Positions 2,593-52,477 of a stretch of DNA of 64,000 nt are shown here, piece by piece (position 1 is the stretch's first letter; the number at the start of each line of letters is the position of its first letter). The stretch covers positions 3,456,001 through 3,520,000 of the forward strand of contig OZ242180.1 of NCBI GenBank assembly GCA_965205485.1. The letters run 5' to 3'. The notes under the pieces were generated by a model. The model ran no database searches. It saw only the letters and a program-made list of their open reading frames with translations, and had not been told where the DNA came from. The position numbers were made by a program, and so were the translations under genes. The DNA is from Candidatus Latescibacterota bacterium. GTDB lineage: Bacteria > Latescibacterota > UBA2968 > GCA-2709665.

Positions 2593-3087
2593 ATGGAAGT
2601 GATCCGACTCGCTGATATGCTGCCGGTCAGCCAATGTGTCGCAAAATGCGACAGTGAACATCTTGTTCTATCGGGATACGGCTACGTCCGCACCCCCGGG
2701 GTATACGAGGTACCGCTGACGATCGAAGCGGAGGCGAAGACGGATTCGACAAACCTGCGCCTCCACTTCGCGAAAGGGCACGTAATATTGAATTGGGAAG
2801 CCGTTCCGGACCAGTTGGCATGCTACGAACCGGTGTACGGGCATGCGTTCCATGTCAGGGGAAAGGGACGGATTCCGCAGGATTCATGGGTAAAGGTGTC
2901 GTGGTTGATCGAGCGGGATTTCATGCGTGTGCTGGTCGACGATGAACTCAGATATACGAACGAGGGAGAAACTGGTGATGAGTTTCATCGGATCGATTAT
3001 CGGGGTCTGATTGGTCCCGTTTGCATCGGGCCGGGGTGGGGTTCAACCGTGACCGTCCGGTCTCTGGCCGTCGAGGAGTCGGACTGA
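2593..3087 (+). CDS. Hypothetical protein, probably all-beta
   Basis: Strong RBS GAGGAGG; 164 aa rich in alternating beta-strand patterns. Confidence 0.6.
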   Translation: MEVIRLADMLPVSQCVAKCDSEHLVLSGYGYVRTPGVYEVPLTIEAEAKTDSTNLRLHFAKGHVILNWEAVPDQLACYEPVYGHAFHVRGKGRIPQDSWVKVSWLIERDFMRVLVDDELRYTNEGETGDEFHRIDYRGLIGPVCIGPGWGSTVTVRSLAVEESD

Positions 3088-42704: not shown

Positions 42705-43787
42705 ATGGAAAAGATCCGCCCCATCCGCGAGTCGGAACTCGAGGAACTCCTGGACCTGCTCTGCGCCGTGCACAACCCCGACGGTCGCGAGCGTTACCGG
42801 GGTTACATCGAAGGCGACCCGACGTGGCGCCCGTCCCACACGCCGGTTGTCGTTGTCGACAATCGGATCGTATCCACGCTGCGCATCTGGGACCGCCGGG
42901 TCCACCTCGGCGCCACACCCGTCCGCATGGGCGGCATCGGCGGCGTCACCACGCATCCTGAATACCGTGAACGCGGCATCGCCACCCGCCTGATGGAGCA
43001 TGCGGCGGAGCACATGCGGGACGATGGATACGACCTCGGTCTGCTCTTCAGCGCGATTCCTGCGCGCTTCTATCTACGTCTTGGCTGGTGCTGCGTCCCG
43101 CTCATGGGTTTTCACGCGGAGTTGCGACGTTCTCCGAACCGGGAGCGGCACGCACTCGAAGTCCTGCCGTTCGACGAGAGCCGGGACCTGGAGGAGACGG
43201 TCGCGCTCTATCAGCGTCACAACGCCGGCCGGAGCGGCACGATGCTGCGTCCGCGTCCTTATTGGGACTATGCGCCTTCACGCGTGCGGGGCGTGCTGCC
43301 CACCACCGTCGTCCGCAGTCCGTCGGGACTCTGTGGTTACATGAACTGGGCGCGGAACGGCGACGAAGCGACGGTGTATGAGATCGCTTACGACAACGCG
43401 CCCGCCCTTGAAACCCTCGTTCAATGCGTGATTGACGAAGCCGGGGTTACCCGGGTCCACGGCGTGATTCCCCACGGCCACCCCTTCGTCGACGCTCTGG
43501 TCGCCGCCACAGACGCCGATCTGAGACTCGGGGGCGACAACTCGATGATGGTCCTGCCGTGCGACGTCGAGTCGCTGATCGCCATGACCGTACCCGATGC
43601 AGCGGAGCTGGCGCGCAGGCTGCCCGTCGACCTGGTGTGCCGGCTCCTGTTTGGAGAGTCCTCGGGCCGCGACCTGGAACCGATCCTTCGAGCCCGTGGG
43701 GTACCGCTTGAAGCAAGGGAAATTCGCCAACTCGAAGCGTGGTTCCCCCGCCGCGAGGTGATCTTCTGGGCGCCAGACCATTTCTGA
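42705..43787 (+). CDS. Eis-like tandem GNAT acetyltransferase
   Basis: MGGIGGVTTHPEYRERGIA, FYLRLGW. Confidence 0.85.
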   Translation: MEKIRPIRESELEELLDLLCAVHNPDGRERYRGYIEGDPTWRPSHTPVVVVDNRIVSTLRIWDRRVHLGATPVRMGGIGGVTTHPEYRERGIATRLMEHAAEHMRDDGYDLGLLFSAIPARFYLRLGWCCVPLMGFHAELRRSPNRERHALEVLPFDESRDLEETVALYQRHNAGRSGTMLRPRPYWDYAPSRVRGVLPTTVVRSPSGLCGYMNWARNGDEATVYEIAYDNAPALETLVQCVIDEAGVTRVHGVIPHGHPFVDALVAATDADLRLGGDNSMMVLPCDVESLIAMTVPDAAELARRLPVDLVCRLLFGESSGRDLEPILRARGVPLEAREIRQLEAWFPRREVIFWAPDHF

Positions 43788-43806
43788 TGTCGCATAAGGA
43801 ACAGAA

Positions 43807-44754
43807 ATGAACACTTCGGTGAATATCTTCGGCGACTTTGGAAGGGTTTTGCGATCGGACGCGGTCTTGCACGCGATTCTTGACGCCGTGAATCAGACGG
43901 TAGAAATCACTTCAATCGCGAGCGACGTCGAGCTGTTCGTCCAGGAATACGGATTGAGAGCGGTCCATCTCAGGGGGTTGCATCGAGCGACAGGTCTGGT
44001 CGTCATCATAAAGGTCGGAACCAGCGCGCGAGAGAACTTCTGGTGTTCGGAACTTCATCGCCTTTGCCCGGACCTGGTCCCAAGAGTATACGCCTCAGGG
44101 TTCCTTCTAGGGGGAATTGACGTTCATTGGCTGGCATCGGAAGCCATTCCGTATGGACCTCTGGGGAATTCATGGAACGGCAGGGAGTTCGAGTTGATGC
44201 TCGATGCAGGGACTCGTTTCTATCAGCAGGCGAAGCGGATTGAAGACTCAACGCTGGACGTCACGTCGCGGGCCGAAGTTGCTCGCTGGCTGGAAGGAGC
44301 AATCCGGCAGCGCTGTCCGGGACCCGTCGACGGGCTTCTGTTGAGACTCGATGACCATTGGGAGTTTATCCTCGCGAAGTGTGGATCCGAAACCGCCTTC
44401 GAAGACTTTCACCTGTGCAATGGCCTGATGAGAGATCCGCCGCCGGACGGGGAGCGCGCGGTCCTGATCGATATCCACCCGAATCGCCGCCCGTGGATTC
44501 TGGATCCCGCGTATCTCCAGGTCTTGAATTCGGGGGACAGGAATCGACCCGGCCACAGGGACCTTGTCGCCAGAATGGCCGCAAAACGCCGCCAAGCGGG
44601 ACTCGCGAGCCTCGAGGGTTCAGACCTGGATACTGCAACAAAGATCGCGCTGGGCTGGATGGCCGCCCGGCAATGGCAACCTGAACGGGCGGATTGGGAG
44701 CCTGACTATCGCGAAGCATATCAAGGGTTCATTGCCGATGCCGTAGGAGTCTGA
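43807..44754 (+). CDS. Kinase-like (APH superfamily) hypothetical protein
   Basis: IIKVG, EDFHLCN, AVLID. Confidence 0.6.
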   Translation: MNTSVNIFGDFGRVLRSDAVLHAILDAVNQTVEITSIASDVELFVQEYGLRAVHLRGLHRATGLVVIIKVGTSARENFWCSELHRLCPDLVPRVYASGFLLGGIDVHWLASEAIPYGPLGNSWNGREFELMLDAGTRFYQQAKRIEDSTLDVTSRAEVARWLEGAIRQRCPGPVDGLLLRLDDHWEFILAKCGSETAFEDFHLCNGLMRDPPPDGERAVLIDIHPNRRPWILDPAYLQVLNSGDRNRPGHRDLVARMAAKRRQAGLASLEGSDLDTATKIALGWMAARQWQPERADWEPDYREAYQGFIADAVGV

Positions 44755-44784
44755 CTATCGGCGGAAGCGGTCCTTCAAAGAAGC

Positions 44785-44816
44785 CAGCCCCGTGTATAAC
44801 GACTGACACGGGGCTG
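44785..44816. terminator. Hairpin between convergent genes (probable bidirectional terminator)
   Basis: CAGCCCCGTGT-10 nt-ACACGGGGCTG perfect 11-bp stem. Confidence 0.7.
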
Positions 44817-44849
44817 TTGATTTGTCTTTCCGCCGCCGGCGAGTGGACG

Positions 44850-47192
44850 CTAGAAGAAATACAGCTTGTAGTTCAGTTTCAGGCTGCGGCCGGTTTCGGG
44901 CATCACGGACCGGACGCGCGAAAGGTGGTTGCGGTATTCCGTGTCGAAAAGATTATCCAGGGAGAGGATCAGGCTGTGGCGGGCCTGATTCATGTGGAAA
45001 TCCCGCTGTACGTAAACGCCGAAGACCGAATAACCGTCGGTGGGATCCTCGTAGGTATCCACGCGTTCCTGCCCCGCGGCCCATTCCATGGTCCCTCCCC
45101 CGGTTAGCCAGTGGTGCCTGTAGGTTGCGCTGCCCACAAACTTGAGCGGCGGCATTTCCGGCAGGGGCATGCGGTCGTTCCGATTTTCGCCGCGCACATG
45201 ACTCAGTTTCATCTCCAGTTCCAGGCGTGCGTTCGGACGCCATTTCAGGTGGGATTCCACGCCCGTCATTCTCGCGTCTATACCTTCCGCGGCGTAGATG
45301 GGGAGTAGTTGGGCCCAGTTGATTTCTCCCGTATTTCGCGGCGCGATGTAATTGCCGAATTCATTCCAGAATCCCGTGAAGACCAGGTCGAATCCCGGCC
45401 GCAGGTAGTGCAGGAAGGCCTCGGCGCCGAAACTGCGTTCGGCGTTGAGCTCCACATTACCCTTCTCAAAGGTGTAAGCGGCCAGGTGTGGACCCTCGTT
45501 GTAGAGTTCCTCGATGGTGGGCGCGCGCTGGGAGCGGCTGAGGCTGAAGCCCGCTGTCAGTTGCTCTGTAATCGGTACGAGCGGGCTGAATGCCGCGGAC
45601 CACGCATGGAAGGTACGGTCTACGTCCAGCCTCTGGTTGGTAATCAACTGGCTGCGCGGGTCGAAGGCGGCATAGGCGTACCGGGCCGCGGCCTGCAGTT
45701 CGATATTGCGATAGATTGTCTCGTGATACAGACCGAAGTGGACGTCCTGCCTTCGCGTGGGCGGGGTGAAGACAAAACCACCCAGCTTGAGATTGCGGTG
45801 TTCGAAGCCTGCGGTGAGAACGGTGTTCTGCTCCCTGTTTCCCGAGTTCAGGTAGAGTTTGAGATCGCCGCTGTAGTCATGAAAAAGGAATTCGGATCCG
45901 ATGCTGCCGCTTGACTCGTACTCGACGTGGCGATAATAGGCCTTCGTGAAGCCCGCCTCGAATCTGTCTGCCGTTCTGCCGTCGAACCGGTAGACAACCT
46001 TTCCGTCGAAGACCCGGCGTATGATGTCGAGATCCGCGCCGTTGGGATGGGCGCCGATGAAGCCGCCCGGAATGCCATACTGAGTTTCGAATTGATCGAA
46101 GGAGCCGCCGACGTATCCCCGGTCGCCCGCGTAGGACGTGCCGAGAGTATATGTGCGGGTGTTGATGGGCGTATTGGCAAGGCGGCCAACCGGTGTCCGG
46201 ATGTCTCGGGTATCCCGGTAGGTGGTCTCGGCATACAACGCGAGCGGCCCCACGGGCGCGGTGAGAGCGGCGGACGAGAAATAACCCCGGTTCGCCGTTT
46301 CCCCGTAAGCGCCCACGCTCCCGAAGAAGCGCCCCGGTCGTATTTCTGGTATCTTGTGTTTGACGACGTTGATGACCCCGCCGCCGGCCGTGGACGTGTG
46401 CAGCAACGTGCGGGGCCCGCGGATGATTTCCAGGCGTTCCGCGTTGAAGGTTTCGACGGTGACCGCATGATCGGCCGACGTTGCGGAGAGATCCTGAGAC
46501 TGAATGCCGTCGACGTTGATCTGTACACGGTCGCCGCTGAGCCCGCGGATAACAGGCCGGGCGGGCGCCGGGCCCATGCTCCGGATGGCAACGCCGAGTT
46601 CGTTCTTCATGGTCTCGGCCAATGTGATGCTGTATTTCTTCCTGAGTTCGTCGCCCGAAAGCACACGGGTGGCCTCGTGCAGTTCCTCAAATAGGGTTTC
46701 AGCGCGTTTGGCCACAACGTCGATGGGGTCCAGCCTGTGGTCCAGCCGCGCCAGTTCCAGATAGACAACGGGGTGCTTCGCAGCCGAGATGTTCAGTTCC
46801 TGGCGCGTTTCAAGATAGCCGACGTGCGTCAGTGACAGGCTATGAATTCCCGGTGACAGATGAAGCACGAACCGGCCTTTTTCGTCCGTAGACGTGCCCG
46901 TGGTGTGATCCTCGGAATGGACGTTCACGTTCCTGATCGGCAGTCGGGTTTCGCCGTCGAAGACATACCCTTCGATCAACACGCCCTGATTTGCGGAACA
47001 GATTCCCGTCAGACATGCCATTGCCAAGAACGCGAGCGCCGCGCAGAAGATAGGAAACCGGAGCGGGGAACGACGGCTGGCGCCGTCGCGCGGGTAGGGG
47101 CCTTCCCTTCCACGACCGGAAAGGAATACCGCAAACAACGCCGCCGCTGCACCCAATTGACTGGATGTCTTCACTCTAAGTGTGCTGAACAT
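44850..47192 (-). CDS. TonB-dependent outer-membrane receptor, ZnuD-like, with N-terminal carboxypeptidase-regulatory-like domain
   Basis: RPVIRGLSGDRV, SADHAV, IIRGP..LL, GPHLA..FE.GN, NLFD..YRNHLS, terminal F; ATG 47192 with AGGAG RBS. Confidence 0.9.
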   Translation of the reverse strand: MFSTLRVKTSSQLGAAAALFAVFLSGRGREGPYPRDGASRRSPLRFPIFCAALAFLAMACLTGICSANQGVLIEGYVFDGETRLPIRNVNVHSEDHTTGTSTDEKGRFVLHLSPGIHSLSLTHVGYLETRQELNISAAKHPVVYLELARLDHRLDPIDVVAKRAETLFEELHEATRVLSGDELRKKYSITLAETMKNELGVAIRSMGPAPARPVIRGLSGDRVQINVDGIQSQDLSATSADHAVTVETFNAERLEIIRGPRTLLHTSTAGGGVINVVKHKIPEIRPGRFFGSVGAYGETANRGYFSSAALTAPVGPLALYAETTYRDTRDIRTPVGRLANTPINTRTYTLGTSYAGDRGYVGGSFDQFETQYGIPGGFIGAHPNGADLDIIRRVFDGKVVYRFDGRTADRFEAGFTKAYYRHVEYESSGSIGSEFLFHDYSGDLKLYLNSGNREQNTVLTAGFEHRNLKLGGFVFTPPTRRQDVHFGLYHETIYRNIELQAAARYAYAAFDPRSQLITNQRLDVDRTFHAWSAAFSPLVPITEQLTAGFSLSRSQRAPTIEELYNEGPHLAAYTFEKGNVELNAERSFGAEAFLHYLRPGFDLVFTGFWNEFGNYIAPRNTGEINWAQLLPIYAAEGIDARMTGVESHLKWRPNARLELEMKLSHVRGENRNDRMPLPEMPPLKFVGSATYRHHWLTGGGTMEWAAGQERVDTYEDPTDGYSVFGVYVQRDFHMNQARHSLILSLDNLFDTEYRNHLSRVRSVMPETGRSLKLNYKLYFF

Positions 47193-47194
47193 AA

Positions 47195-47421
47195 TTGTTC
47201 TCCTGTGTACCGGAATCTCACTTCGTCCCGAAACGCGCGTGAGCATCCGCCGACGCGGTGGACGAACTGCGGATTTGCCGGTATGATGGCGAAATGTCAA
47301 GTTGCCAGGCCGCTTGCCCGCCATTGCGGACGTATCCTGCACCGGAGAGGGGCGGGATTGCATTTTGCCCAATCCCGAGAGTCTACCTGCGTGCAGAACC
47401 GAGCCACACTTCTGCACGCGC
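47195..47421 (-). ncRNA. Candidate cis-regulatory structured RNA, copy A (5' leader of the TBDR)
   Basis: Paralog of 49538-49749; shared hairpins with compensatory changes. Confidence 0.55.
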
Positions 47422-47428
47422 GGATTAG

Positions 47429-47588
47429 CAGCCCGTTGACAAAGTCCATCCGGCCTACGGCCGGCCCTTGCGGCCGAAATACCGCGTTGCGCTCCCTCGC
47501 CGAATCGAGGGATGGGACTCGGTCGCGCGCCTTGTCTTCGACCACAATGGCTCGGCCTCGCCTGCAGAGCGATTTTATCAACGGACTG
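47429..47588. mobile_element. 160-bp MITE
   Basis: TIR CAGCCCGTTGACAAAGTC / rc CAGTCCGTTGATAAAATC (15/18); TTAG duplicated; absent from the paralogous leader. Confidence 0.8.
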
Positions 47589-47649
47589 TTAGAGCCAGTG
47601 CCGACCTGGAACGAACTGTTTGAAAAAACCTGGAAGTACGGAAGACGTG

Positions 47650-47964
47650 TCAAGAAGACACGTGAGACACGGGAGGTGCGCGTCCGTCGGGCAGAAGGAG
47701 GGAAGAGCGAGATGAACGAATCGAGGAAAAGCCCTGCCTGATATACAGAAAGCAAAGTTGCAGCACGAGCACTGCCGGCGGAATGATGCTCAGGTTGCTG
47801 AACCAGGCGCAGACGGCACACTGTTGTTCGTGATCGTGACATGGTTGACCGTGATCGTGATCGTGTTCGGGGAAGACGGCAAGCAGGAATACCGCCAGGT
47901 AGGCCGCGAATATCACGAGCGCGATAACAACAACCGGATGAATCCGTCCGGAGGAAAAAGACAT
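47650..47964 (-). CDS. DUF2946-like (CruR/CutF-like) upstream ORF, copy A
   Basis: N-terminal hydrophobic segment, HDHDHGQPCHDH, CAVC, C-terminal LLPDGRAPP; precedes the TBDR. Confidence 0.8.
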   Translation of the reverse strand: MSFSSGRIHPVVVIALVIFAAYLAVFLLAVFPEHDHDHGQPCHDHEQQCAVCAWFSNLSIIPPAVLVLQLCFLYIRQGFSSIRSSRSSLLLPDGRAPPVSHVSS

Positions 47965-48268
47965 CCTGCGGTCTCCAGATAAGCGCAAACGAACCTGGTT
48001 ACAGCCATGAACACACTGGCAACGTAACCTCCGAACCCATCCCTTTCGTCCCACAGGACGTCGCACCGGCCTGGCTCGGGTGATCTCGTGCCAGAACCCG
48101 GACCTGCCGGCCCGGCAGGTGGTAAATCGTGAGGTCGGCCTGCCGGGGCTCAGGGATCATACGGACAATCTCGGCAGAAGCTTTATCCTGTACACGTCAG
48201 TCATCTGCAATGTGCTCCGACCTTGCAGACGGAGGGAGGGCGAGAAAACCCTCCCGCAGCGTTTTCTG

Positions 48269-49534
48269 CTACGGCGCGGTGATCGCCACCGAAATGGGCG
48301 CGAATTCGTCCTCCGCCTCGCCGTCGTGGAAAATGGAAAGTGTAATGGTGGTCGTGCCCGCTTTCTTGCCGATGAGTCTGAAGGCCCAGTATTCGGGGGC
48401 AACAGGCGGATCGATTGCGAGCAGCGCGGTGTCGGCCACCGCGATGCCCAGCGTGCGATCGGGCGCTTCCGGCTGAAATTCCACGTCGTGTTCGTCAAAG
48501 AAGAACGTCGCGACGTGGTCGGTTGTGTCGCCTGCGGCAACGGCAAGGGCCTCGGTGGCTTCGCCTTCTCCCTTAACGGGCGCCTGTGTAAGCAACTCGC
48601 CGCTGTCTTCTTCCTTAAGCCGAACGCCCACGGGTTCGCCGTGCTGTCCCTCCCGTGACTCCACGTGTACAGGAATGGGCCGTGTACGGTAGTCAACGTG
48701 CCCTTCGTGCCAGACTTCAAATACAATCGTGGTTTCGCCTTCCTGCAAGCCGCGCAGGTGAAACTCGAATGTACCCTCGTCGCCCTCGTCCTGAACGACT
48801 TCGAGAACGTCGGGGTTGGCAATGGTCCAGCCGAACGTGAATTCGGGATCGTCCGGCGGGTCTTTTTCATCGCCGTGTTCGTCCAGAAACATGATGCGCC
48901 AGTGAGGCGTCAGGCCAATCGGGGCCGTGAGTTCCGATGCCCGACCTTCGCCCGAGTCGATCTCGCCCTGGTAATAGCGAAAGAATCGAACGCCGGATTC
49001 GATGATGACAAGCCCTTCCGCATTGAAGTGGGACGAGTGCTCTTCTACCACGTATACCGGGAGCGGTACCGTGGTGAAGTCGATGTGCCCTTCGTGCGAA
49101 ATCTGAAGCTTGATGGTGGTTTCGCCATCTTCAAGGCCGCGCAGGGCGAAGACGAATTTACCCGCTTCCCCCGCGTCCTGGACGACCTCCACGATCGACG
49201 TGTCCGCAATCTCCCACGTGAAACTGAAGCCCTCGCCGGAGGGGGGCGCCATTTCGTTTCCGTCTTTGTCCAGGAAGCGGATGCTCCACTTGCTGGTGAC
49301 TTCGCCGTGAGCGACCGCCAGGATTTCCGCCCGACCTTCGCCCGCGTCGATCCTGCCCTGGAAATAACGAAAGAAACGCTCGCCGGAGTCGACGAGGACC
49401 AGGCCTTCGGCTTCGTAATGCTCTTCCTGTTGAGTGATGGGGCCTTCTTTACCACAACCGGACGCGAACACGGCAAAAACCGCCGCCGTCACAATCCAGC
49501 GAAGGGATGTTTTCAACTTCAGCATGCTGATCAT
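48269..49534 (-). CDS. His-rich lipoprotein with three repeated Ig-like domains, putative metal-binding
   Basis: Lipobox-like FASGC; repeats EEHYEAEGL / SHFNAEGL / QHGEPVGV, GETTI, HEGH(I/V)D. Confidence 0.7.
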   Translation of the reverse strand: MISMLKLKTSLRWIVTAAVFAVFASGCGKEGPITQQEEHYEAEGLVLVDSGERFFRYFQGRIDAGEGRAEILAVAHGEVTSKWSIRFLDKDGNEMAPPSGEGFSFTWEIADTSIVEVVQDAGEAGKFVFALRGLEDGETTIKLQISHEGHIDFTTVPLPVYVVEEHSSHFNAEGLVIIESGVRFFRYYQGEIDSGEGRASELTAPIGLTPHWRIMFLDEHGDEKDPPDDPEFTFGWTIANPDVLEVVQDEGDEGTFEFHLRGLQEGETTIVFEVWHEGHVDYRTRPIPVHVESREGQHGEPVGVRLKEEDSGELLTQAPVKGEGEATEALAVAAGDTTDHVATFFFDEHDVEFQPEAPDRTLGIAVADTALLAIDPPVAPEYWAFRLIGKKAGTTTITLSIFHDGEAEDEFAPISVAITAP

Positions 49535-49537
49535 TAT

Positions 49538-49749
49538 TCAATTCCTGTGTACTCGAGTCTCACTTCGCCCAGAAGGCGCATGAAACTCTGCCTGTGTGGC
49601 ATACGAACTGCGGTTGTGCCGGCAGGCAAATCCGCCGGGCCGGTCATCTGGCGTTGCGGATGTAGCCTGACCCGGAGAGGGCGCGAATGCACGCACCCAA
49701 TCCCGAGAGTCTACCCGCGTGCAGAACCGAGCCACACTTCTGCACGCGC
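49538..49749 (-). ncRNA. Candidate cis-regulatory structured RNA, copy B (5' leader of the lipoprotein)
   Basis: 53/54 identity with copy A over 49696-49749; covarying RBS-proximal stem. Confidence 0.55.
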
Positions 49750-49801
49750 AGTTCGAGCCAGGGCCGACCTGGAACGACCCGATTGAAAAAACCTGGAAGC
49801 A

Positions 49802-49965
49802 AGAAGCTGTTTTAAAATTACCGGTGAGTTCCCGAGCGCGAGCGAAAAAGTGGCGGTCAAGGCGGGAAAATCCGCCCATATTTGTCTATACGGGTGGATT
49901 TGACCAACGCCGACCGGCACTTTTGCAGCCGTGCGAAGACCGCTGGGAATTTTAAGACAGCTTCT
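49802..49965. mobile_element. 164-bp MITE
   Basis: TIR AGAAGCTGTTTTAAAATT / rc AGAAGCTGTCTTAAAATT (17/18); absent from the paralogous spacer. Confidence 0.8.
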
Positions 49966-49994
49966 AAGGAGGACGTGTCAGGAAGACACGCCAG

Positions 49995-50155
49995 TGTTCT
50001 GTCCCGGAAATAAGTTGCCTGAATTCGACCGCTGAGTCGCCCGGCTCGCGAGGCGCCGGAGCGCAGGCGACCTGCGTATGGTCGGCGAGCGACGGGAACG
50101 TAGCGATACGGGATGAATCGGCGGTCGAATGGTGAGGAATTTCTGGGACAGGACA
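49995..50155. mobile_element. 161-bp MITE
   Basis: TIR TGTTCTGTCCCGGAAA / rc TGTCCTGTCCCAGAAA; CCAG duplicated; right end recurs at 24217. Confidence 0.8.
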
Positions 50156-50165
50156 CCAGGTTGGA

Positions 50166-50477
50166 TCAGGACACGGGAGGTGCGCGTCCGTCTGGCAGAA
50201 GGAGGGAAGTGCGCGGGGAATGGAACGAGAAAAAACCCTGCCTGAAATACAGAAAGCAAAGCTGCAGCACGAGCACTGCCAGCAGAATGATGCTCAGGTT
50301 GCCGAACCAGGCGCAGACGGCACATTGTGGATCATGACATTGCTGATCATGATCGTGACATGGGTGTTCGTGATCGTGACCGGCGAAGGCGGCAAGTAGA
50401 AAAACCGCAAGGTAGCCCGCGAATATTGCAAGGGCGAAAACGACAACCGGATGAAGCCGTCTGAAGGGCGAAAACAT
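50166..50477 (-). CDS. DUF2946-like (CruR/CutF-like) upstream ORF, copy B
   Basis: HDHEHPCHDHDQQCHDPQCAVC ... LLPDGRAPPVS; paralog of 47650-47964. Confidence 0.8.
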   Translation of the reverse strand: MFSPFRRLHPVVVFALAIFAGYLAVFLLAAFAGHDHEHPCHDHDQQCHDPQCAVCAWFGNLSIILLAVLVLQLCFLYFRQGFFSFHSPRTSLLLPDGRAPPVS

Positions 50478-50524
50478 CCTTACCTTCTCCGGAAGAACAA
50501 AGAACTTACAGGAATTCAATTCGT

Positions 50525-50553
50525 AGTATACACGAAACGATCGGCTTCGTCAA
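50525..50553 (-). promoter_or_regulatory. Sigma70-type promoter for the metal-uptake locus
   Basis: Minus strand TTGACG-17 bp-TATACT, about 50 nt upstream of uORF B. Confidence 0.7.
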
Positions 50554-50609
50554 GTAGCCGGAAGCCGGAAAGCAGCCGCAAAAATGGCGCCGCACTCGGG
50601 GAATTGACC

Positions 50610-50638
50610 TTGACACCTGATTCGTACCTGCGTATATG
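50610..50638 (+). promoter_or_regulatory. Sigma70-type promoter, divergent
   Basis: TTGACA-17 bp-TATATG. Confidence 0.55.
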
Positions 50639-50800
50639 AGTGTGATTCCTCACGTTTTTATATGGCAACGATGCGGCTGGTGACGACGCGGCCGAAGTCG
50701 GACTGTTTGCACTTGATAATCCTGCCGCAGACCTGGCGTCCGAAGCGGATCGAAAGATAATCGCCAATCTGAACGTGCTATTTGCAATGTGCCAAAGACG

Positions 50801-51669
50801 ATGCCCTACACATTTATAAACGGCTTCCGTATGTTCTATGACGTGCGCGGGGAAGGCGAAGTCATCGTGTTCGTACACGGTGGATTTCCTTCGCTCGACA
50901 TGCATCTCCGCGCCGATCCGGGAGGCGGGTGGGGATGGGAGATGGATTTCACGTCGGAATTCCGGTATGTGATGTACGATCGCCGGGGCTGCTGGCTGTC
51001 TTCCCGCCCGGAGTCGGGCTATGACCTGGAGAACCAGGCGCGCGACCTGGTCGAATTGCTGGACCACCTCGATATCGAATGCGCGCACGTCATCGGTTCC
51101 TCCGCCGGGGGTCCAATAGCGATCCTCTTTGCAACGCTTTTCCCGGAGCGTGTCAGGACACTGGTATTGGCCGGAACCGCGGCGCATCTCTGGCCGGACG
51201 AAGATCCGGTTACCCGGATTGTCAAGAAACAGTTGGAAATCCTTTATAAACAGGGAGCTGAGCCTGCCTGGACGTGCCGGCCCGATGGTGTCGAACTCTC
51301 TCTCGACGTCCTCTGGGAACGCGACGAGATGGAGGAACGGGGAACGCTGGCGGAATACGACGAGCGAGTCAGCAGGCTTGTGGCGAAGTCCAGCCTGGAG
51401 GATCGCGAGGCGTGGTACGAGACCCAGTTGAGGTCGATCGACGCGTACATTGACAGAGATCTGTCTGTCGAATGCGAACGCGTGCGGGCGCCAACGCTTG
51501 TCGTTCACGGCGCAAGGGACCGGGAAGTACCGGTGGATTGGGGCAGGGATCTGGCAGCGAAGGTCCCCGGCGCCGAGTTCAGGTTGTATAAGACGAACCT
51601 CACAGCATAGTCCACGGAAGTCGTCGGGTGCGTGAAGACCTGATGGCGTTTATTCGAAGCGCGGATTAA
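50801..51669 (+). pseudogene. Alpha/beta hydrolase, frameshifted near 51590
   Basis: FVHGG, DRRGCW, GSSAGG, HGARD; the catalytic His segment (DEPHSIV...AFIRSAD*) is in another frame. Confidence 0.75.
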
Positions 51670-51736
51670 TGAATGCGTGAACCGTCGATACGCAGGCTGA
51701 TCCGTTCACTTTCTTCGATCGGGCACGAAAGACAAA

Positions 51737-52477
51737 ATGGGCAGGGACAATCTCAGATTTCTGTTTCTTGACGTCGACGGCGTGATCCTCGACAACGCCA
51801 TGTGGGAAACGGAGAGCAGCAGGCTCGTCGGCGCCGCGTTCAGCGAATTGCTCGGTGGCGACGCTGACGTGTGGGCTGAGCACCAGGAACGGCTGTGGTT
51901 GCGGGTATGGAACCGGGGAAGCGAAGAATACACGGAGGCGCTGGGTCTGCGAAGGCTGAATCTGTCAAGATGGTGGGATCGACTGCATGCCGAATGGGTT
52001 CTGCAACTGTGTGACGAAGTTGGCGTGGAAGCGCCCCGCACCTTCGAAGAACGGGTCGACGTTGCCGAACGCGCATTCACCAACGTTTATCTGAACACCA
52101 GGGCCGTCTTTGCGGGCGCCGGATCGGCCATCGAGGCGCTGGCGAAAGACTTCGAGATCCATACCGCGTCCGGCAACCCGTCATGGGTGATAGAGACCCT
52201 GCTGACGGGCATGGGTATTCGTGAACTGATAGGCAGGCCGTTCGGGTCCGATCTGGTCGGCTTTCAGAAGGGGCACAGGACCTTTCACGCTCGCATCCTG
52301 AACGAAGTCGGGGCCAGGCCTCAAGAATCGATCGTCGTGGATGATCACGAAATGCCGCTTCTGGCCGCCGGGAAGCTCGGCGCAAAGACGGTCAGAGTGG
52401 GGCGCGCCGGATCAGGTGAATTCGACCTCACAATCGAATCGCTGTCCGATTTGCCAGACGCCATATCTGCCCTTTGA
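51737..52477 (+). CDS. HAD-superfamily hydrolase
   Basis: FLDVDGVILD, ASGN, VVDD. Confidence 0.85.
   Translation: MGRDNLRFLFLDVDGVILDNAMWETESSRLVGAAFSELLGGDADVWAEHQERLWLRVWNRGSEEYTEALGLRRLNLSRWWDRLHAEWVLQLCDEVGVEAPRTFEERVDVAERAFTNVYLNTRAVFAGAGSAIEALAKDFEIHTASGNPSWVIETLLTGMGIRELIGRPFGSDLVGFQKGHRTFHARILNEVGARPQESIVVDDHEMPLLAAGKLGAKTVRVGRAGSGEFDLTIESLSDLPDAISAL

Follow-up and report, generated by a model that had tools for sequence, protein, structure and literature searches.

A conserved family of CruR/CutF-like leader reading frames, probably placed on zinc-uptake genes, in a Candidatus Latescibacterota genome

Introduction

Riboswitches for copper or zinc are not known; for copper, protein-based leaders take their place (PMC9426467). 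The closest described systems are CruR of Bordetella pertussis and CutF of Rhodobacter capsulatus, both encoded by small upstream open reading frames (uORFs). This report concerns two uORFs of a similar kind in a stretch of 64,000 nt (hereafter the window: positions 3,456,001 to 3,520,000 of contig OZ242180.1, assembly GCA_965205485.1) from a Candidatus Latescibacterota bacterium, where they precede the genes of a lipoprotein and of a TonB-dependent receptor resembling ZnuD of Neisseria. Positions are those of the window unless a genome or locus handle precedes them; G000 is the genome of the window.

CruR (Bp2923, DUF2946/PF11162) precedes the copper TonB-dependent transporter BfrG/CrtA; the distance from its CxxC motif to the arginine of the arrest motif is 45 residues and must be kept within 1-2 residues, its leader is 162 nt long, long intergenic distances are described as general, and regulation is by Rho (PMC9426467). 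At arrest the P and A sites hold Pro-Pro, and an RSPP motif is partly permissive (PMC12992588), while the cruR promoter carries no Fur site (PMC12914433). CutF-type spacers are mostly shorter than 100 nt, and release of a stem-loop is probably limited to such short regions (10.1101/2022.11.11.516240). On the receptor side, the zinc ligands of ZnuD are Asp99, His100, Glu340 and His499 (PMC4557270). RAPP- or RGPP-containing uORFs with signal sequences are widespread before TonB receptors in Gram-negative bacteria, and the main text of that survey, counted without its supplementary lists, has no occurrence of 'zinc', 'ZnuA' or 'tandem' (PMC12992588). A literature search confined mostly to openly available papers, supplementary gene lists excluded, returned no report of a zinc-sensing arrest peptide.

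Results

The locus belongs to a conserved CruR/CutF-like leader family that is placed on probable zinc-uptake genes. A previous sequence-only reading of the window had listed, in minus-strand order, a promoter, uORF B, a leader, the lipoprotein gene, uORF A, a second leader and the receptor gene, and had described two hydrophobic segments, an HDH/CHDH tract, a CAVC motif and a C-terminal LLPDGRAPP in each uORF. All of these elements are present (Table 1), the spacers measure 631 nt (uORF B to lipoprotein) and 457 nt (uORF A to receptor) as had been given, and the interpretation of the uORFs as CruR/CutF-like RAPP leaders is supported by what follows. It is moderately probable that the leaders stall at RAPP when a metal, most likely zinc, is scarce, whereupon the lipoprotein and the ZnuD-like receptor would be made, the second leader being a duplicate and the spacers holding repeats. 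The sequence data show the anatomy of the locus, the purifying selection, the fixed spacing, the history of duplication, the repeats and the neighbours; within this scheme we infer translation, stalling, the metal, the polarity, and the output through Rho and an RNA helix.

Table 1. Features of the locus, listed in the direction of transcription
Feature	Position	Strand	Remarks
Sigma70-like promoter, TTGACG-17-TATACT	50553-50525	-	operon head; 10/12 consensus match
uORF B, 103 aa	50477-50166	-	two hydrophobic segments with the His tract and then CxxC (C52, C55) between them; RAPP at 98-101
C>G bubble B	50240-50043	-	more C than G; uORF B 3' end and just past; candidate Rho loading site
Candidate anti-Shine-Dalgarno	50179-50171	-	Pro-Pro-Val-Ser codons of uORF B; weak in uORF B
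MITE-like element 1, 163 nt	50156-49994	-	terminal inverted repeats; 40 near-full genome copies
Short hairpin	49990-49974	-	conserved in genus directly after uORF stop
MITE-like element 2, 164 nt	49965-49802	-	terminal inverted repeats; 91 near-full genome copies
Native leader B, 3' part	49801-49535	-	homologous to leader A and third paralogue; ribosome-binding site 49550-49543; no Rfam match
Lipoprotein, 421 aa	49534-48269	-	acidic; three immunoglobulin-like repeats
Duplicated cassette, 1,078 bp	48173-47096	-	upstream FlgD-domain gene tail, uORF A, leader, first 32 lipoprotein codons; sits at receptor gene start
uORF A, 104 aa	47964-47650	-	motifs as uORF B; RAPP at 95-98; small deletion shifts stop four codons on
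C>G bubble A	47720-47643	-	uORF A 3' end
MITE-like element 3, 166 nt	47591-47426	-	terminal inverted repeats; 58 near-full genome copies
TonB-dependent receptor, 780 aa	47192-44850	-	ZnuD-like; N-terminal carboxypeptidase-regulatory-like domain; lipoprotein-derived N-terminus

Both uORFs are coding genes under purifying selection. They are ~75% identical to each other, with a nonsynonymous rate (dN) of 0.125 below the synonymous rate (dS) of 0.294. A search with uORF B found homologues in 26 of 41 related genomes and in all 14 other genomes of the genus, and an alignment-based search of the phylum gave matches in 47 of 151 genomes, mostly of two families. Among 20 genus copies dN/dS is 0.32, with dN below dS in all 190 pairs, which are non-independent; similarly, the sister family gives 0.39 (10 copies; 41 of 45 pairs). 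All 33 aligned copies keep both cysteines, the tryptophan two places after them, the arginine and the Pro-Pro. CxxC precedes the arginine by 42 residues in 29 of 41 copies and by 43 in 10, the remaining two being broken. Close relatives differ in the His tract, which can be as short as a minimal HDH and as long as triple repeats.

So as not to select on the feature being counted, a set of 66 loci was picked by alignment of the lipoprotein and not by the uORF; many of the genomes are kin. An intact small ORF ending in RxPP heads 55 of these loci, in 45 cases with CxxC 42-45 residues before the arginine and in 10 without; of the others, one has an internal deletion, one a frameshift, seven show no such ORF and two are cut by contig ends. 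The records with an intact ORF are labelled Latescibacterota, Gemmatimonadota/Longimicrobiales, Melioribacteraceae and Chitinophagaceae, and the closest named records are Candidatus Latescibacterota, some of them deposited under Gemmatimonadota. In loci of the Longimicrobiales type the receptor lies before the lipoprotein. RAPP leaders without CxxC at the usual spacing precede the same gene pair at L108, L109, L111, L112, L114, L115, L117, L119, L120 and L123; these have a single cysteine with histidine in the same region.

RAPP arrest peptides with export signals can also monitor Sec/YidC (PMC12992588). A secretion monitor like SecM or ApdP, in which membrane insertion of the hydrophobic segments and not metal would free the stall, fits the two hydrophobic segments of the uORFs and the 10 of 55 related leaders that lack CxxC at the usual spacing. 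However, the invariance of both cysteines, the retention of cysteine and histidine in the leaders without CxxC, and downstream genes that serve metal uptake and not secretion make such a monitor quite improbable.

CruR/CutF-like uORFs have been filtered for fewer than 150 aa, an N-terminal export or membrane segment, a PP motif among the last 15 residues, and a same-strand gene within 1,000 nt. Both uORFs have all of these features (the N-terminal segment judged by hydropathy only), and they share the fixed distance from CxxC to RAPP; the downstream copper-homeostasis gene of CruR and CutF was not found. The sequence-only reading had related the uORFs to the DUF2946 family, and here the profile (PF11162) counts against it: the two score 12.0 and 17.5 bits (16.8 bits in a genome search), under the gathering cut-off of 23.7. 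Of 67 relatives found by profile search, 40 were scanned and three pass the DUF2946 cut-off, and thus the two families overlap.

Zinc is our best guess, from sequence comparison, for the metal that would be sensed and imported. Previously, His-expanded sites had been taken to indicate zinc, nickel or cobalt and not copper. The preference for a non-copper metal, specifically zinc, stands, though on grounds other than the His expansion; zinc is favoured because of the ZnuD ligands in the receptor and the ZnuA, ZigA and FolE2 neighbours of related loci. ZnuD is the best PDB match of the receptor (4RDR), and three of its four ligands are aligned, in that D113, H114 and H513 of the 4RDR chain (offset 14) face an Asp-His and a His of the receptor. 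ZnuD is also the best NCBIfam match (NF038289), with 195.3 bits, against 60 bits for the OprC model; the receptor of a paralogous locus in the same genome scores 200 bits with the ZnuD model.

The neighbour survey covered 43 hand-chosen proteins at related loci, scanned with Pfam. It gave matches to ZnuA (3), ABC-3 (3), MerC (3), cation efflux (2), CobW, DUF3299, FolE2, FecCD and one SCO1, and none to PepSY, PCuAC, CopC or an oxidase. The CobW neighbour passes the ZigA cut-off (608.6 vs 600), and members of the uORF family head ZnuA and ABC-3 operons in three of three scanned cases. Additionally, at L149:485-2645 a uORF of the family heads a MerC gene and a target that is not a transporter, the GTP cyclohydrolase FolE2, which serves as a back-up enzyme independent of zinc. 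DUF3299 belongs to the Zur regulon of Vibrio (PMC9817125).

Several results weigh against zinc. The ZnuD score lies far under the curated cut-off of 950 bits, heme-receptor models match the receptor as well, and Glu340 falls outside the aligned stretches; the fold model of the receptor (predicted local distance difference test, pLDDT, 41) is too poor to place an equivalent. CruR uses its CxxC as the copper site, the SCO1 gene lies near a related locus (L103) that also has an Nramp-like gene, and the absence of a Zur box fits a non-zinc metal as well. A Zur-box consensus gave no similar palindrome near the window promoter or at any of the three uORF promoters of the genome. The same arrest-peptide switch could thus respond to copper, nickel, cobalt or manganese. 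Copper is the metal to which the tested leaders with CxxC and RAPP respond (PMC9426467; 10.1101/2025.02.05.636593), relatives with His only precede nickel and cobalt genes (10.1101/2022.11.11.516240), and the ZnuA-family neighbours match manganese models too. Set against the three aligned ligands, the margin of ZnuD over OprC, and neighbours that include ZigA, FolE2, DUF3299 and ZnuA with no PepSY, PCuAC, CopC or oxidase among those scanned, another metal seems to us rather unlikely.

The genome holds two Fur-family proteins, one of which we take, from its family, to be Zur-like. A znuCBA-like cluster (G000:C1:2750343-2755060) ends in the Zur-like gene and has, upstream at ~2755044, a palindrome resembling a Zur box; one of the MITE-like repeats of Table 1 is inserted at the start of its ATPase gene. 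The second Fur-family gene stands first in another cluster (G000:C1:848847-853879), identified by eye only, whose further genes encode a TonB receptor, a membrane protein and a CobW-like GTPase and which probably serves metal uptake. At L151 and L155 (G091 and G123), two CxxC/RSPP uORFs are followed by an unannotated exported protein of 410 aa and by ZnuA-family and ABC-3 genes, and at L152-L154 and L157 a single uORF precedes a similar protein. The 410-aa protein of L151/L155 has no Pfam or NCBIfam match.

The lipoprotein had been called His-rich, a description that does not hold: histidine makes up 16 of 421 residues (3.8%), compared with 3.0% across the genome's long reading frames. The protein is instead acidic (D+E 18.8%), with conserved His/Glu/Asp motifs in each of the three immunoglobulin-like repeats. 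No named family scored above its cut-off save for a short chagasin-like match. A confident fold model of the repeat is all-beta (pLDDT 79), and Foldseek returned only generic immunoglobulin-like matches with a query TM-score of at most 0.44.

If the favoured scheme is correct, a single transcript would start at 50525. At low metal, a ribosome would pause at the Pro-Pro codons and cover the C-rich stretch that would otherwise load Rho; it would also keep the tail of the uORF off the downstream ribosome-binding site (RBS), wherever that helix is kept. With metal present, binding at HDH/CxxC would pull the nascent chain free. This site lies 42 residues before the arginine and hence probably just outside the exit tunnel. 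After release, Rho termination in the leader, pairing of tail and RBS, or both would shut the genes off, while the inserted repeats would fold on themselves.

The promoter is the sole minus-strand promoter-like match in 43000-52000; both strands together hold two such matches, against 2.7 expected by chance. It is kept in front of most first-position uORF copies in the genus. Before uORF A there is no promoter-like site, the equivalent sequence being degraded, and the receptor would therefore stand behind two checkpoints in series and the lipoprotein behind one. A terminator between lipoprotein and uORF A was considered and rejected, as the hairpin at 48257-48231 lacks a U run and is shared by the paralogue, in which the receptor comes immediately next.

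With respect to the output, the C>G bubbles at the ends of both uORFs rank in the top 0.8% of 78-nt windows of the genome, the mean C>G signal peaks at the uORF end in 29 copies of the family and 10 of the sister family, and a rho gene is present with a score over its cut-off. Together, bubble and rho gene are consistent with Rho attenuation, although Pro, Ser and Leu codons impose part of the bubble. A second candidate output is a helix between uORF tail and RBS, since the codons after the arginine often complement the downstream RBS. In a matrix of tails and sites from 16 lineages, the cognate pair is best in 11 of 16 rows and above expectation in 16 of 16, with a mean excess of -4.6 kcal/mol that none of 100,000 permutations equalled (shuffled-tail control, -0.3 kcal/mol); the windows and starts were chosen after the data had been seen, and independence between the lineages is incomplete. 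Across 15 sequences, sister-family and allied, a 13-bp helix shows 91% pairing, and two of its pairs are compensated, one of them in the stop codon. Synonymous recoding gives p<0.05 for 11 of 14 sister-family copies and 7 of 19 genus copies. Among the three copies of the genome, the helix is strongest in the third paralogue.

For the window itself the evidence runs the other way. Synonymous recoding gives p values of 0.12 (copy B) and 0.22 (copy A), among 400 control AGGAG sites, 82% pair equally well with tail B and 65% with tail A, and in module A the predicted pairing with the tail takes in only 3% of the RBS. Moreover, at most two of eight held-out loci support the helix, seven of the eight heading other genes (a ninth was dropped as a repeat of L101). 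When the footprint of a stalled ribosome was blocked in folding, the probability that the RBS is unpaired rose only modestly, in B from 0.47 to 0.59 with one 5' boundary or from 0.27 to 0.64 with another, and in A from 0.23-0.29 to 0.44-0.46, compared with 0.00-0.14 to 0.05-0.13 in the paralogue; the block spanned everything upstream of the ribosome, and the release is thus overstated. Within the family, then, a real helix is likely, but the copies of the window have it in weak form.

The length of the spacers had been regarded as unusual, and as too great for simple coupling of a stall to an adjacent RBS. In fact, the long spacers consist of a native leader of ~300 nt plus mobile repeats. Multi-copy repeats account for 327 of 631 nt in spacer B and 166 of 457 nt in spacer A, leaving ~304 and ~291 nt, similar to 314 nt in the third paralogue and 287-329 nt in repeat-free genus copies. 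Leaders of most sister-family copies are ~115-150 nt long (122-147 nt in 9 of 10), and long distances are general according to the CruR report. Across relatives, leader length varies from <100 to >300 nt with repeats inserted at several sites, and each of the three repeats is predicted to fold as one closed hairpin; the insertions are likely near-neutral. The label 'MITE-like' (miniature inverted-repeat transposable element) rests on terminal inverted repeats and copy number, no transposase partner having been sought. Several related genomes have one repeat family at the same site, directly behind the stop codon of the uORF. A gene hidden inside the spacers was also considered and rejected, as the overlapping frames disagree between the two leader copies.

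The 3' parts of the leaders fold better than shuffled sequences (z -3.7 and -3.0), as would be expected if the leader were a metal-binding riboswitch to which the uORF is secondary. Yet Rfam covariance models gave no match in 43000-52000 at E values up to 5, leader length is variable and repeats are tolerated, and folding 15 repeat-free leaders to a consensus yields only 21 pairs, which lie mostly near the ends, with a middle that drifts. A conserved riboswitch-like fold was rejected because conservation is confined to the leader ends, and a metal-binding riboswitch is highly improbable.

A sensor for each gene had also been presented as an unusual property of the locus, but it reflects a lineage-limited duplication. 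By sequence comparison, module A is a cassette copied from a paralogous promoter-side unit, and the ancestral unit has one uORF. Window positions 48330-48174 and 47095-46902 align to adjoining parts (2662-2819 and 2820-3013) of the paralogue stretch used for comparison, and the intervening 1,078 bp correspond to the end of the paralogue's upstream gene, its uORF and leader, and the first 32 codons of its lipoprotein gene. Insertion at the start of the receptor gene means that the receptor begins with a lipoprotein-derived N-terminus (18 of 32 residues identical). The third paralogue, at G000:C1:2128721 (locus L057, G000:C1:2124539-2128793), has the ancestral order uORF, leader of 314 nt, lipoprotein, receptor, with proteins 87% identical. 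Among 15 genus genomes, the two-uORF order is intact in three (G000, G005, G006; receptors 85-98% identical) and altered in three (G002, G004, G009), the order uORF-lipoprotein-uORF-lipoprotein-receptor occurs in two (G010, G014), and seven have a single uORF. DNA contigs from four public runs of one study cross both cassette junctions with no differences, with very deep coverage over the three repeats; they may derive from the source sample and so are not independent. Two uORFs in series are found also at L083, L151 and L155. At L083 (G021), upstream of 5001, an apparent decayed MerC-like gene lies between the two uORFs, followed by the lipoprotein.

The duplicated leader A may be a second checkpoint. 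The fate of the second copy elsewhere, which is broken in G009, collapsed in G004 and without its lipoprotein in G002, counts against this role. It is quite possible, though we lean somewhat away from it, that only uORF B regulates and that cassette A is a tolerated or decaying by-product of recombination; this would be compatible with the favoured explanation of module B. The insertion junctions coincide exactly with the paralogue, uORF A has a stop deletion and no predicted helix between tail and RBS, and an intact one-uORF paralogue is present in the genome. In contrast, uORF A is intact and shows dN below dS when compared with uORF B, its spacing and C>G bubble are kept, the order has survived in three genomes, and serial uORFs occur at three other loci. 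The fullest version of the scheme, in which a zinc-sensing arrest switch acts twice in series through Rho attenuation and a long-range helix reaching an RBS 300-600 nt away, with repeats looped out, a sharper, AND-type response of the importer and no Zur control, appears doubtful.

Discussion

A zinc-responsive arrest peptide, if true, would extend protein-based leader control from copper to zinc. The family of loci also offers natural variants, with one or two leaders, leaders of ~100 to 600 nt and a helix that is strong or weak. The strangest features of the window locus are explained by duplication and mobile repeats, and its surprise is lowered accordingly.

ZnuD of Neisseria (PDB 4RDR; PMC4557270) is the best structural and family match of the receptor, which has equivalents of Asp99, His100 and His499. 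It differs in its low score (195 bits vs 950), an extra N-terminal domain and the unaligned Glu340, and ZnuD is under Zur whereas the window operon has no Zur-like box.

CutF, which precedes the multicopper oxidase CutO, resembles the window uORFs as an exported nascent sensor with a Pro-rich stall (10.1101/2022.11.11.516240; 10.1101/2025.02.05.636593), and it shares an anti-Shine-Dalgarno helix that a stalled ribosome could open, which is clear in relatives of the window locus. Unlike the situation proposed here, CutF stalls with copper and, acting over a short stem-loop, switches on an enzyme of detoxification, whereas the helix of the present family would close a loop of 100-300 nt. Since the targets here are importers, the opposite polarity is expected.

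CruR, which the locus resembles in layout and in the polarity expected, differs in that the window uORFs fall below the DUF2946 cut-off, have a spacing of 42 and not 45, and carry a His tract and a second hydrophobic segment. The downstream genes are a ZnuD-like receptor and a lipoprotein in place of CrtA and PepSY_TM, the leader is ~300 and not 162 nt long, and the window locus is non-proteobacterial and duplicated in series. Overall, like CruR, the uORF is the first gene of an uptake operon without a Fur-family box and has an export-type N-terminus, a C-terminal RAPP to which its CxxC keeps a fixed distance, a C>G bubble over its end, a long intergenic region and a TonB receptor downstream.

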